32,000 nucleotides of DNA from Promethearchaeota archaeon (GTDB lineage Archaea > Asgardarchaeota > Hermodarchaeia > Hermodarchaeales > Hermodarchaeaceae). Positions 18,592-25,232 of this stretch are shown piece after piece. The stretch spans positions 55,978 through 87,977 of the forward strand of contig JBHLMI010000007.1 in the NCBI GenBank assembly GCA_048938295.1. The letters run 5' to 3'. The notes below the pieces were generated by a model. That model did not search any database and was not told where the DNA came from. It worked only from the letters and a program-made list of their open reading frames with translations. The translations under genes and the position numbers were made by a program. Numbering within the stretch: the stretch's first letter is position 1; each line of letters begins with the position of its first letter.

Positions 18592-18688
18592 TGGCGCGGA
18601 GTAAGGGACTTGAACCCTTGCGACCAGAAGGTCACTGGATAACCCGATTCAACTCGAGTCCAGCGCGTTACCGCTCCGCCAACTCCGC
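18592..18688 (-). tRNA. tRNA-Ser(CGA) with a 12-nt canonical 37/38 intron (18641-18652), CCA encoded
   Basis: GCGGAGT/ACTCCGC acceptor, G73, long variable arm GACC-TTCT-GGTC, anticodon loop CT-CGA-G[TTGAATCGGGTT]A. Confidence 0.92.
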
Positions 18689-20935: not shown

Positions 20936-21013
20936 AGCGGGGTGGGGTAGCCAGGATATCCCGCGGGGCTCATAACCCCGAGATCAATAGTTCAAATCTA
21001 TTCCCCGCTACCA
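20936..21013 (+). tRNA. Initiator tRNA-Met(CAT), CCA encoded
   Basis: A1:U72, AGCGGGG/CCCCGCT acceptor, three consecutive G-C pairs in the anticodon stem, CTCATAA loop. Confidence 0.95.
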
Positions 21014-21042
21014 CTTCTTTTCCACAACAACATAGAAATAAG

Positions 21043-21260
21043 TGGCCCAGGGGCCGTGCCCGACTACCAGATTATACCCCCGGCACTTCCGGACCCTCAA
21101 TCGGCAGTCGGATCCCACACGGGGAGGTGCACAACCCGTACCAGACGAGGCATCCAACCAGTCCAAGGATCGCACACCGCTCAGCCACCCGGAACACGAC
21201 CAAGCAGCCGCGTCAATAATCCCCAGACGGAATCATAGAAAAACTCCACACCCAAAGCCC
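21043..21260 (-). ncRNA. Candidate structured non-coding RNA (~215 nt), family unassigned
   Basis: GC-rich with no credible protein; terminal stem plus several hairpins that pair fully only on the minus strand because of many G-U pairs. Confidence 0.6.
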
Positions 21261-21343
21261 AGGTTTACCTTCCGAATACTATTAAGAAAGTGACGTAAAG
21301 TAATCTAAGCTCATGGGAGAAACAGCAAAGGGTCTTTCCTACA

Positions 21344-23077
21344 ATGACACCTAGCCAGTCACGAGATCAAACTACATTCCTTAGCCAAGCCCAAGCGGAA
21401 GCCATTAACAAATTTGATGCTGTCGCAACTATGATTGAAAACCTCCTCGGGTCATCTCCCATTGACTATTATTCAACTTTGAGTTTTGTATCTTTTCCAC
21501 TCCAACTCAAAGGACCTAGATTCGGTGTAATAGAACACAAAGACAAGAAAGACCAAAATTTTCTACAATTTTCGAAGGACTTACTCACAAAGTATCCAAA
21601 ATACCTCGAGCCAATTCTCTGGCGTGAAGCTTTTCTCCTACACCTGCCTAGTTCTATCCGTAAAGTTTCGCTGGCTGCTGACCTTGGGCTGTACTGTTAT
21701 TACCGTTTCGGGCTCAGAACAAAAAAACAAAAAGACCAGTTCCTCCAAATCTGGCAAACGACTTCACCGCCCATCGATTATACCTTTTACCGCTATTATC
21801 CTACAGCTGGGTTTGAATACTTCGACAATCTTGTTGATGGTAACTTTCTCAAAATGGCAAAACGGTGGTTCAAACCGTTCATCCAAGTGACAATACCGAT
21901 AAGTGAAAAAACGTATACCGAGAACCTCGAGCGATGGATGTTCAATTATCATCGGAACCTTCGTCCCATAGAACACAAAATCCTTTGCGGTTTAAACACT
22001 TGTCTTACCTGCTCACAAACCGAATTGGCAGAAGACCTCAACCTCCGTCAACCAACAATTAGTCAAATAATCAAAAGACTAGCTGAGAAACACCTATTGC
22101 GGTTTATTATCTTCGAAAATTATCCCAAACTTGGGCTCCAGCCCATAACAGTCAATATAATCTTCGCAAAAATGAAAACCGTCGATTCTATTATACGTTT
22201 GTTTTCCCAAGTTCGATATTCACTTGCAATGATGGTATTTGATACTCTGCTCCTTGCAACTTTTTTAATACCTACAGAGCGCGTTAGTCGCTTCCAGCAA
22301 TGGCTAAAACAAATCTCTTCTAGTTTTGATCTTGCGACACCACAGCTAAGTCAAATTTCGGAAAGAATGCATTCCCGAAACTTTAACCTTTACAATCCAC
22401 GAATAGGAGAATGGTCAACAGAAACCGAATCACTCCTTGAGAGCTTTTCCAGATTAATCTCTGAAAAATTAACATCACACCTACCGCCTATCAATTCATT
22501 TAGATTGGCACCATCTACTACGAAAAAAACCCTCAAAATCAAGCAACAAGATTTCATCTACATGCAAAGGGCAACTGAAGCTTATCTAGCTACAAGGCAT
22601 ATGAAGTTTTATGAATCTCATGAGTTGCGAAAAGCTGGTTACAAAGAATCAGAACATATGGCTTATCGGCGACATGTAAAATTTTTAGAAAGAAACGAAA
22701 TTATCAGCCCACCACTCGGAGTAGGATTACTAAATATTGGGTTAAACACAGTAATCCATCTATACCTTGGTTCTTCTAAGGATGAAACAAGACGGATCTT
22801 TACTGCATTCCAACTCTTTCCACATATTTCTTGTATGCTATTGGAAAATGGGGCTGGTGCTGCTACTCTCCCTGTTCCATCAGAAATCGCTGTTTCACTT
22901 ACGGCATCTTTAGAAGGTTTGTTCAGGTCTTTAGAAATTCCTGCAGTCATCACTATGAAACCTGCTTGGAACGCGTATGGGTGGACTTTTCCTCCCGTAT
23001 TAAGTTCGATAAATTTCGAGTTCGAGACTAATCGATGGATCTGGGCTAAAGATACGTTGCCAACACCCCGTATCTAA
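21344..23077 (+). CDS. Large multi-domain winged-helix regulator (WREA N-domain plus duplicated wHTH/Lrp-RAM-like module), paralog 1
   Basis: ILWREAFL, SQTELAEDLNLRQPTISQIIKRL, NYPKLGLQP, C-terminal aromatic motif NFEFETNRWIW. Confidence 0.8.
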   Translation: MTPSQSRDQTTFLSQAQAEAINKFDAVATMIENLLGSSPIDYYSTLSFVSFPLQLKGPRFGVIEHKDKKDQNFLQFSKDLLTKYPKYLEPILWREAFLLHLPSSIRKVSLAADLGLYCYYRFGLRTKKQKDQFLQIWQTTSPPIDYTFYRYYPTAGFEYFDNLVDGNFLKMAKRWFKPFIQVTIPISEKTYTENLERWMFNYHRNLRPIEHKILCGLNTCLTCSQTELAEDLNLRQPTISQIIKRLAEKHLLRFIIFENYPKLGLQPITVNIIFAKMKTVDSIIRLFSQVRYSLAMMVFDTLLLATFLIPTERVSRFQQWLKQISSSFDLATPQLSQISERMHSRNFNLYNPRIGEWSTETESLLESFSRLISEKLTSHLPPINSFRLAPSTTKKTLKIKQQDFIYMQRATEAYLATRHMKFYESHELRKAGYKESEHMAYRRHVKFLERNEIISPPLGVGLLNIGLNTVIHLYLGSSKDETRRIFTAFQLFPHISCMLLENGAGAATLPVPSEIAVSLTASLEGLFRSLEIPAVITMKPAWNAYGWTFPPVLSSINFEFETNRWIWAKDTLPTPRI

Positions 23078-23465: not shown

Positions 23466-25232
23466 GTGTCTAATCGTTGCTTGGATGGTTGGGCTATGTC
23501 GTCGGCGTCTCGTGAGTTATTTCAGGAATTCCATCGCAAACAAGACGTGCTAGCGAAGATATTAGATCTTGAGGTCTTGCCCCGCCGGAAAGATCGACTA
23601 CTCCATTTCTCGTGGAGCGATGTCCCATTGGTCTATGATCGGCCCCGGTTTGGCGTACTTGAAAGTGAACTCGCTGACAGCCTTCATGGTGGATGGCAGA
23701 TTAAGCTGGCTCAGGGGTTCCAAGACGCTGAGACGTATGTGTTGGACTGGGTGCTTTGGCGGGAAGCCCTCCTTGGTTTTTTGCTTCCGCATCAGCGGCA
23801 TATCCCCGAAGCCGCCGACCTTGGCCTGTATGCAGGCCTTCAATATGGGAAATTCACCGAATCAGACCGTGAAGCCCTCACAGTATTATGGAAGCAGGTC
23901 TCTCCGCCCCAACATTTCCAGCATTACATCTATGATGGACCCTTTGGGTTTCCGCTTTTTGACCAAGTCGTCTCCGGTTTCTTTCTCCAACGGGTTATAC
24001 CATGGTTAAATACGCTTCGTCGAACAGCTACCGGGGCGACCTTGACCACGGCAACCTACACTGCTGCTTTGGAACGCTGGATGCTTGAAACTCACATTAC
24101 CCTCACCGAACCTGAACACCAGATCCTTACTGCGCTGAGCCGCCTTACCACCCCTCTCCATCAAAGTCGGCTCGCTGAGGAGCTCAACATGAGTGTCTCC
24201 GGGCTCAGCCAACACCTCACTGCCCTGGCACAACGACACGCTCTTCGGCTCAACCATTTCATCAACCTTCCTCTCATAGGTCTCACACCTTACGAGCTTC
24301 TCATCCACGCCCCTAGCCAACAAACTCGCCAACGTATTGTCAAACTCTTTAGCCAAATCCGTTACACCTGGTTCATCAACCCAATCCAAAATCACCACCT
24401 CCATTGTCGTGTCTTCATACCCACCAGAAACACAGAAGAATTTCAAGACTGGCTCGCAGAACTTGCTAAACAACATGATCTCTTGCCTATTGAGCCCTTT
24501 CGAACAGCGGGTATCATACAAACCTGGAACTTCGGCATCTACACTCCTAACCAGGGATGGATTGAAGACTTTGCATTTCAATTTCATCTATTGCAAGCCA
24601 TCTTCGACGATGAATATACTTCTCCACTGCCCCCCATTTCCTCATCATCGATGTCTTATGAGCTTTTAGAAGACAAACAGAAATATCCAATCGCGTTACG
24701 TCATGAAGATTTCACTTATTTTCTCCGGGCTGCTGATATCCATCAAATCACCGACAGCATCACTTCTCACGCCTCTACAGAGCTGCAAGAGGCTGGCATC
24801 TCCCAAACTGCCCATATGGTTTACAGGAGACGGATTAAGCAATTGGAGAAGATGAAGGTTAGTTCGGTGAAAGGCATGTTTCCTCTGCATTTGGGGCTTG
24901 ATTCAGTACTCCAGATCTATGTGAACGAATCACGAGTAATAACTGAGCAAGTACAAAAGGCGTTGAGTGTGTTTCCTAATCTAAATGGATTGAATTTTGA
25001 TAATGGTTACGGAATGATCTTCTTGTATATTCCAAATCCTTGCGCAGTAGAGGTCGTATCTGAAATACGTAAGTTGTTTTCTATGAATGACATTGATTCA
25101 ACTATCGAGGCAAAACCTTCTTGGCAATCAATAACTGGATTTGAATATCCAGTTAACCTTCGTAATTATGACACTGAAAAAAGAGAATGGAAGTGGGAGC
25201 GAACTACTCTACCAAAACCTGGTTCGATGTAA
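23466..25232 (+). CDS. Large multi-domain winged-helix regulator, paralog 2
   Basis: VLWREALL, EAADLGLY, HQSRLAEELNMSVSGLSQHLTAL, NLPLIGLTP, NYDTEKREWKW. Confidence 0.8.
   Translation: MSNRCLDGWAMSSASRELFQEFHRKQDVLAKILDLEVLPRRKDRLLHFSWSDVPLVYDRPRFGVLESELADSLHGGWQIKLAQGFQDAETYVLDWVLWREALLGFLLPHQRHIPEAADLGLYAGLQYGKFTESDREALTVLWKQVSPPQHFQHYIYDGPFGFPLFDQVVSGFFLQRVIPWLNTLRRTATGATLTTATYTAALERWMLETHITLTEPEHQILTALSRLTTPLHQSRLAEELNMSVSGLSQHLTALAQRHALRLNHFINLPLIGLTPYELLIHAPSQQTRQRIVKLFSQIRYTWFINPIQNHHLHCRVFIPTRNTEEFQDWLAELAKQHDLLPIEPFRTAGIIQTWNFGIYTPNQGWIEDFAFQFHLLQAIFDDEYTSPLPPISSSSMSYELLEDKQKYPIALRHEDFTYFLRAADIHQITDSITSHASTELQEAGISQTAHMVYRRRIKQLEKMKVSSVKGMFPLHLGLDSVLQIYVNESRVITEQVQKALSVFPNLNGLNFDNGYGMIFLYIPNPCAVEVVSEIRKLFSMNDIDSTIEAKPSWQSITGFEYPVNLRNYDTEKREWKWERTTLPKPGSM

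Follow-up and report, generated by a model that had tools for sequence, protein, structure and literature searches.

The minus strand between positions 21048 and 21214 of the window (the whole 32,000-nucleotide stretch of DNA analyzed here), and possibly up to 21249, holds a stand-alone gene, present once in the genome, for a non-coding RNA that folds and belongs to an undescribed family; the gene lies beside the initiator tRNA gene and is found in Hermodarchaeia only. The minus strand is the RNA strand, the RNA is conserved in both genera of the class, and it folds through helices Pb, P1, P2 and P4. An earlier note on this DNA had described a "novel multi-branched archaeal ncRNA" here; the strings that it quoted sit where it placed them, and its description is supported by the absence of an Rfam match, by homologs in Asgard genomes and by compensatory base changes.

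We observed that the element forms a G+C island, with a G+C content of 0.63–0.65 in 100-nt windows across it vs ∼0.42 in the flanks. The minus strand of 21040-21265, folded as RNA, reached −102.5 kcal/mol, with a z score of −2.97 against dinucleotide shuffles, and 0 of 200 shuffles equaled it; the plus strand of the same region gave a z score of −0.09. In the source genome, the 60 consensus pairs comprise 45 Watson-Crick and 13 G-U pairs, and this share of G-U pairs identifies the minus strand as the RNA strand, so that the strand argument made from G-U pairs in the earlier note was upheld. BLAST found no paralogs in the genome. The element is non-coding, since relatives differ by 1- and 2-nt indels and the variable columns show no 3-periodicity (41/35/41); a protein-coding reading based on the long stop-free frames of the C-rich plus strand was rejected because the same indels disrupt these frames among relatives.

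The overall architecture is a 5' hairpin, Pb, followed by a helix, P1, that closes a four-way junction with P2, P3 and P4 (Table 1). Pb, P1 and the four-way junction make up the core common to every homolog's own minimum-energy fold. P1, in which CCGGGUGGCUGAGC pairs with the consensus GCACRGCCMCUG, is predicted in the single-sequence fold of each homolog, and 93–94% of its cells pair. When the 10 genus sequences were aligned with MAFFT, independently of the structure, 91.8% of cells paired vs 35–43% in slid registers, and 8 compensatory pairs were counted vs 3.3 ± 1.4 in shuffles (0/500). With the sister genus added, 89.6% of cells pair vs 34–43% in slid registers, and 19 of the 60 pairs have changed on both sides vs 9.0 ± 2.3 in shuffles (0/500); these 12 sequences represent two genera only, the shuffle control ignores kinship, and the 12-row alignment was fitted to the covariance model.

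Compensatory changes occur at 10/14 pairs of the P2 main helix and, within P4, at 6/14 pairs of the lower stem and 2/5 pairs of the upper stem; in the sister genus, for instance, CCAG/CUGG takes the place of CCGG/CCGG. For P1, Pb and P3, the support consists of invariance or of one-sided G-U/A-U exchanges only. Across the homologs, conservation sits in the helices, the junction and the internal loops, and the terminal loops vary; P1, the junction, the P4 internal loop and the P2 tip are fixed while the stems drift and compensate. A search for extra pseudoknots, which required complementary windows of 4 nt to be shared by 11 or more of the 12 sequences, returned only overlaps with known helices, and we could not establish a K-turn, an Sm-type motif or any other motif known to bind proteins.

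Table 1. Features of the RNA gene and its immediate neighbors (positions in the window)
Feature	Position	Strand	Observation
Convergent tRNA-iMet	20936..21013	+	Rfam match; neighbor, outside the RNA
3' tail, T-rich	21031..21047	-	Likely termination zone
P1 3' strand (GCACGGCCCCUG)	21048..21059	-	Pairs with 21179-21191; conserved A-A mismatch
P4, long arm	21060..21111	-	Conserved 4x4 internal loop (AGGG opposite GGUA); covarying 5-bp upper stem
P3, short hairpin (UCCC / GGGA)	21113..21125	-	Two invariant C-G pairs, covariation absent; weak support
P2, long arm with conserved apical GGUUGGRU hairpin	21126..21178	-	∼90% of cells pair
P1 5' strand (CCGGGUGGCUGAGC)	21179..21191	-	Near-invariant in both genera; pairs with 21048-21059
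Hairpin Pb (GACGCGGCU / GGUCGUGUU)	21192..21214	-	92.6–95.6% of cells pair; G-U to A-U changes preserve pairs
Spacer, sequence variable, length fixed (earlier hairpin AUGAUUCC/GGGAUUAU)	21215..21235	-	0 indels in 12 sequences
GTGGAG + TTTTTCTA (octamer at 21243-21236)	21236..21249	-	Invariant in 10 genus sequences
BRE/TATA-like element (plus strand TCCGAATACTATTAAGA), contains CTTAATAG	21271..21287	+	17 nt, conserved in all genus loci
Divergent 577-aa gene	21344..23077	+	Sole neighbor kept at all 12 RNA loci, in both genera

This consensus departs from the fold first drawn for the region. The long hairpin at 21060-21111 covaries and became P4, the sole survivor of the five helices in the earlier note. 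An 11-bp hairpin at 21182-21210 is broken by G-to-A changes in relatives, which fit the smaller Pb and the long-range P1 in its place, and the segments of two further hairpins, GUACGGG/CCCGUGU and GCGAUCC/GGAUGC, fall in P2 and P3. The proposed terminal stem (21259-21251 with 21052-21044) was lost as well: no relative shares the spacer sequence that supplies its 5' half, and leader-trailer pairing in 13 homologs was no better than in shuffles. Leader-trailer duplexes at shuffle level in these 13 homologs also led us to reject the terminal stem as a processing or bulge-helix-bulge stem. A hairpin between AUGAUUCC and GGGAUUAU in the spacer ("Pa") fared no better, since 63.5% of its cells pair vs 62.5% when it is slid by one column, and 87 of 500 shuffles match it. 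We also discarded an alternative helix of the 5' tail, in which 74% of cells pair and covariation support is absent.

We then followed the family across genomes. BLAST detected homologs in 9 of the 14 other genomes of the genus, at 71–95% identity, and a covariance model built from these homologs (R1) detected full-length copies in 2 of 4 sister-genus genomes, at 51–56 bits. The two genera are the entire class as sampled (19 genomes), and homologs with compensatory changes are present in both, in keeping with the archaeal RNA family that the earlier note had suspected. R1 and a broader model, R2, run over 151 Asgard genomes under stricter Infernal filters that weak matches could escape, recovered the family only, with none in the 132 genomes outside the class. 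R1 with filters off found nothing beside distant paralogs of the neighbor gene in other Asgard families. A degenerate DNA pattern matched only Hermodarchaeota/Promethearchaeota MAGs among 185,579 species genomes, apart from chance matches in high-G+C bacteria; among JGI metagenome contigs, the same pattern gave one further variant (contig SMTZ1_10000606). The RNA is restricted to Hermodarchaeia and has been lost in some species. Five genomes of the genus (G002 and G005-G008) lack it, with the syntenic site assembled in each. These sites hold only the upstream TATA-like box, remnants of the GTGGAG/T-run block and ∼60–100 nt of unrelated sequence. In a tree of the neighbor protein, three of the RNA-less genomes group as one clade and the other two branch separately, and the basal branches and the sister genus carry the RNA, which is therefore ancestral in the class and was lost one to three times. 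Given these losses within the genus, we consider the RNA to be accessory rather than housekeeping.

Two observations concern individual loci. In G006 (L040 3280-3400) and G002 (L041 ∼1300-1400), the body is missing, the GTGGAG/T-run block is partly kept, and a short hairpin and a T5 run follow; the partial block is either a vestigial promoter or part of a much shorter transcript. In the closest relative, the assembly breaks within the RNA gene (G001:C76 end, L002; G001:C47 start, L011), and the two contig ends overlap over ∼125 nt of the gene at 93–95% identity, which suggests strain heterogeneity at this locus.

Two boxes precede the conserved body. The nearer, GTGGAG + TTTTTCTA, is separated from it by exactly 21 nt in 12/12 sequences; the sister genus has GTGTGG + TTTATTAG at this position and has no conserved box further upstream. 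G+C is at background level both across 21236..21249 and in the spacer 21215..21235. The nearer box is likelier to be the BRE/TATA box of the RNA gene, the reading that we favor, than the single-stranded 5' end of a longer RNA. The further box, CTTAATAG (21286-21279), lies at a variable distance of 22 to 30 nt from the GTGGAG block and is also kept in the five genus genomes without the RNA body. On the plus strand, it reads as CCGAAT followed by an AT-box, resembling tRNA promoters of the source genome such as TCCGAATGATTAATC. This box probably serves the divergent protein gene as its core promoter; that it also acts as a second promoter for the RNA is no more than a possibility. The TATA-like CTTAATAG of the earlier note is present and conserved, but it more likely serves the protein gene than the RNA.

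The fixed spacer also bears on where the RNA starts. In archaeal termination, a run of five T about 10 nt into a transcript is poorly placed. We reasoned that a start near 21214 is favored because the 21-nt spacer of fixed length is unconserved, forms no supported hairpin and is at background G+C, and because a run of five T would be misplaced 10 nt into the longer transcript. A start near 21214/21213, which gives an RNA of ∼175 nt, is thus fairly likely, and one near 21250, which gives ∼205–210 nt, is the less likely of the two. A Gibbs-sampled promoter matrix, derived from the regions upstream of 17 ncRNAs, carried too much noise to separate the two TATA boxes. At the other end, runs of 4–8 T lie 5–20 nt past the conserved 3' end in 9 of 13 homologs; weaker runs are TTATTTC in the source genome and its two nearest relatives and TTT in one homolog. 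In the source genome, the RNase P, SRP and tRNA genes are likewise preceded by TATA-like boxes, and the RNA gene has what is generally expected of an ncRNA gene, with a candidate TATA-type box at the usual distance and a T-run terminator in most homologs.

A weak hint of expression came from one metatranscriptome run (X20, labeled leaf litter). It contains a 310-nt contig, ∼90% identical, that spans 21007-21256 and a 132-nt contig of another relative that ends near 21248, with zero cover at 21270-21450; contigs of this kind reveal neither the strand nor the ends of a transcript and could come from DNA carry-over, and their gaps and ends cannot be read as transcript boundaries. The DNA runs that hold the element are sediment, soil and mangrove metagenomes, and its share is small in most.

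Next, we considered the genes around the RNA. On the minus strand past the RNA come the convergent tRNA-iMet and then plus-strand genes for >2 kb. The adjacency to tRNA-iMet is kept at most loci; G010 and G013 carry tRNA-Ile/tRNA-Ala there, and even at these loci the 577-aa gene stays beside the RNA. At both (L006 2023-2245 and L009 128-351), the RNA and the 577-aa gene lie beside tRNA-Ile(GAT) and tRNA-Ala(CGC), two genes that in the source window are ∼18.5 kb off, at 2402-2659. This suggests that the region around the origin was rearranged, with tRNA genes as the breakpoints.

The model of the 577-aa protein (pLDDT 88) has an N-domain with an M1/thermolysin-type zinc peptidase fold (Z 10.0, rmsd 4.1, 169 residues), in which WREAxLLH stands at the expected HExxH position. 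C-terminal to it are two wHTH + RAM-like units of the kind seen in NirDL and in Lrp/AsnC regulators. A tandem paralog, ∼30% identical, lies at 23466-25232 (+), the proteins being 577–588 aa long, and contig C33 carries a third paralog. Relatives of 520–550 aa are found, without the RNA, in several other Asgard families. Orthologs are present in 14/14 other genus genomes, the RNA-less ones included, and a protein that persists where the RNA is missing is not its obligate partner. Regulators of the Lrp/AsnC type often control genes that diverge from their own, which makes the 577-aa protein a plausible regulator of the RNA.

Some further genes for structured RNAs are unusual in this genome and its relatives. 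In G007 (L036 3402-3493), the neighboring tRNA-iMet measures 92 nt, and its anticodon as read by ARAGORN has four bases (cata), suggesting an intron in or near the anticodon loop that is absent from other species. A tRNA-Thr at 18592-18688 (-) of the window has a 16-nt anticodon-loop insertion and a long variable-region insertion in the Rfam alignment (52 bits), and probably has more than one intron. The only 16S and 23S pieces in the assembly (G000:C48:36-1167 and G000:C20:44859-46418), both from incomplete genes, span 1132 nt for 514 model positions and 1560 nt for 830 model positions, which implies large insertions (introns or expansion segments).

What might the RNA do? Since the stems change and compensate around a fixed P1, junction, P4 internal loop and P2 tip, we reasoned that the RNA presents a three-dimensional recognition surface, the simplest version of which would be a protein-binding scaffold. 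Judging from sequence and its comparison among homologs, we lean with modest confidence toward a dispensable, architectural protein-binding RNA, the product of an undescribed single-copy family, with a start at ∼21214 and a T-rich end. Transcription from the minus strand would start at ∼21214, driven by the TTTTTCTA box at 21243-21236, and would end in the T-rich stretch at ∼21031-21047. The transcript would then fold into Pb and the long-range P1, with the long arms P2 and P4 and the short P3 around the four-way junction. The fixed P1, junction, P4 loop and P2 tip would offer recognition surfaces for a protein, and the RNA might work as a ribonucleoprotein component or as a protein-sequestering RNA. 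Its expression may be under the control of the divergently encoded Lrp/AsnC-like regulator.

Other readings of the same gene have to be weighed against a protein-binding scaffold. A trans-acting antisense sRNA, pairing with mRNAs through the P2 apical loop or, in the long form, through a 5' GUGGAGUUUUU tail, would agree with a stand-alone gene that lies by a regulator gene and is dispensable in some species, like many regulatory sRNAs, and a few short segments are conserved and unpaired. This reading is nevertheless unlikely: conservation is found in the helices, junction and internal loops rather than in the variable terminal loops, both the size and the four-way junction would be atypical of a seed-type sRNA, and a search of the genome for antisense targets or rRNA mimicry returned 12-mer and short-BLAST matches at chance level, the 12-mer antisense matches showing no enriched target. 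An invariant junction and P4 internal loop between covarying stems, as in natural ribozymes and aptamers, could instead form the active or binding site of a ribozyme or a ligand-sensing RNA. We give this little credence, since known ribozyme and riboswitch families were unmatched even at E ≤ 10, a same-strand downstream gene that a riboswitch or cis-leader would regulate is absent at the locus, no tertiary pairing supported by covariation was found, and the sequence points to no cleavage site. Similarly doubtful is a Hermodarchaeia-specific ribonucleoprotein core or catalytic RNA that other archaea lack, perhaps a partner of the adjacent peptidase-like/Lrp-like family, itself widespread in Asgard archaea, or a new four-way-junction ribozyme; if true, the closest prokaryotic relatives of eukaryotes would gain their first described RNA machine that is both lineage-specific and functionally distinct.

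Some loose resemblances would suit a known class (H/ACA or C/D guides, or RNase P/MRP-like, SRP-like or Y-like RNAs) of which the element might be a highly divergent member: GAGGGUCCGG is reminiscent of the CR-I motif of RNase P, 6/12 sequences have ACA after the P4 hairpin, 8/12 have CUGA, and a vWA-domain gene lies nearby. The class tests make such membership very improbable. At gathering scores, Rfam 15 matched four tRNAs only in the source window, and even at E ≤ 10 nothing overlapped the element in the window or in five homologous loci, six loci in all, as the earlier note had expected of a novel RNA. The genuine RNase P RNA (RF00373; G000:C47:7929-8306, 177.3 bits) and SRP RNA (RF01857; contig C35, 123.1 bits) are encoded elsewhere in the genome, which settles a point that the earlier note had raised, and neither RF00373 nor the SRP helix 8/helix 5 core of RF01857 matched at the element. 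Where an H/ACA box would be expected, half of the sequences have ACG or CCA rather than ACA, paired within P1 and ∼21 nt from the loop; the CUGA, also within P1, is replaced by CUAC, CUAA or CUGU in the others, and a conserved C box (RUGAUGA) is absent. For an L7Ae K-turn or K-loop, we found an upper stem of 5 bp with a variable 5–7-nt loop, and tandem sheared G-A pairs were not seen in the alignments. Just as hard to credit is a non-functional origin, in which the region would be what is left of an insertion, or else an element that acts as DNA close to the replication origin or the tRNA gene, with G+C palindromes that mimic RNA structure. Such an origin would explain presence and absence within one genus, the 7-mer that flanks the region in the source genome and the adjoining tRNA genes, which are common integration sites. 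Against it, the G-U pairs and strand asymmetry favor RNA over DNA structure, and the compensatory changes attest selection on pairing. The earlier note had raised a small inserted element on account of the GCCCAGG 7-mer at both ends, but the 5' copy is absent even from a 95%-identical relative; we therefore take the repeat, which is private to the source genome, as chance and not as a target-site duplication. In the tests for a mobile element, a target-site repeat was absent in relatives and the RNA was single-copy, syntenic in two genera and ancestral in the class, and the inserted-element alternative was dropped.

A dispensable, protein-binding RNA thus continues to be the reading that we prefer. 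The non-coding RNAs of Asgard archaea are nearly unexplored, and here one Asgard class gains a concrete RNA family with a covariance model. Its defined fold, its conserved gene neighbor and its natural knock-outs (the species without the RNA) make the function testable. Because the family is narrow (two genera), dispensable and without a tie to a eukaryote-like process, the likely pay-off is an orphan RNA family and not a changed view of Asgard biology.

Full-text searches of the literature returned no paper on this RNA or on structured ncRNAs of the lineage. Like RNase P RNA (RF00373), the element is a multi-branched RNA of the kind found in ribonucleoproteins, with a long-range closing helix and a motif similar to GAGGxxUCCGG; unlike it, the element has no covariance-model match, shows neither a P4 pseudoknot nor the CR-IV/CR-V motifs, and can be dispensed with by some species. 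Archaeal H/ACA sRNAs share with it a hairpin with a large internal loop, here P4, followed by ACA in half of the sequences, but this ACA is ∼21 nt from the loop vs 14–16 in H/ACA sRNAs, and an internal loop of 4x4 is no pseudouridylation pocket. In its possible working, the element resembles Y RNA/YrlA, 6S and 7SK, which are stand-alone structured RNAs of 100–300 nt, often non-essential, whose helices and loops are protein platforms; it lacks a Ro-binding bulged helix, a tRNA-like module and an open-promoter mimic, and we do not claim membership. Klein, Misulovin and Eddy reportedly found, in 2002, orphan G+C-rich archaeal ncRNAs (Hgc) by their composition bias. The element has no sequence or structure match to any Rfam family, Hgc among them, and differs from the Hgc RNAs in its Asgard host and its ∼175-nt four-way junction. 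The Hgc RNAs of Methanocaldococcus/Pyrococcus are nevertheless alike in being encoded by stand-alone genes for G+C-rich structured RNAs in an A+T-richer genome, with an archaeal promoter, a T-run terminator and a range of one lineage.
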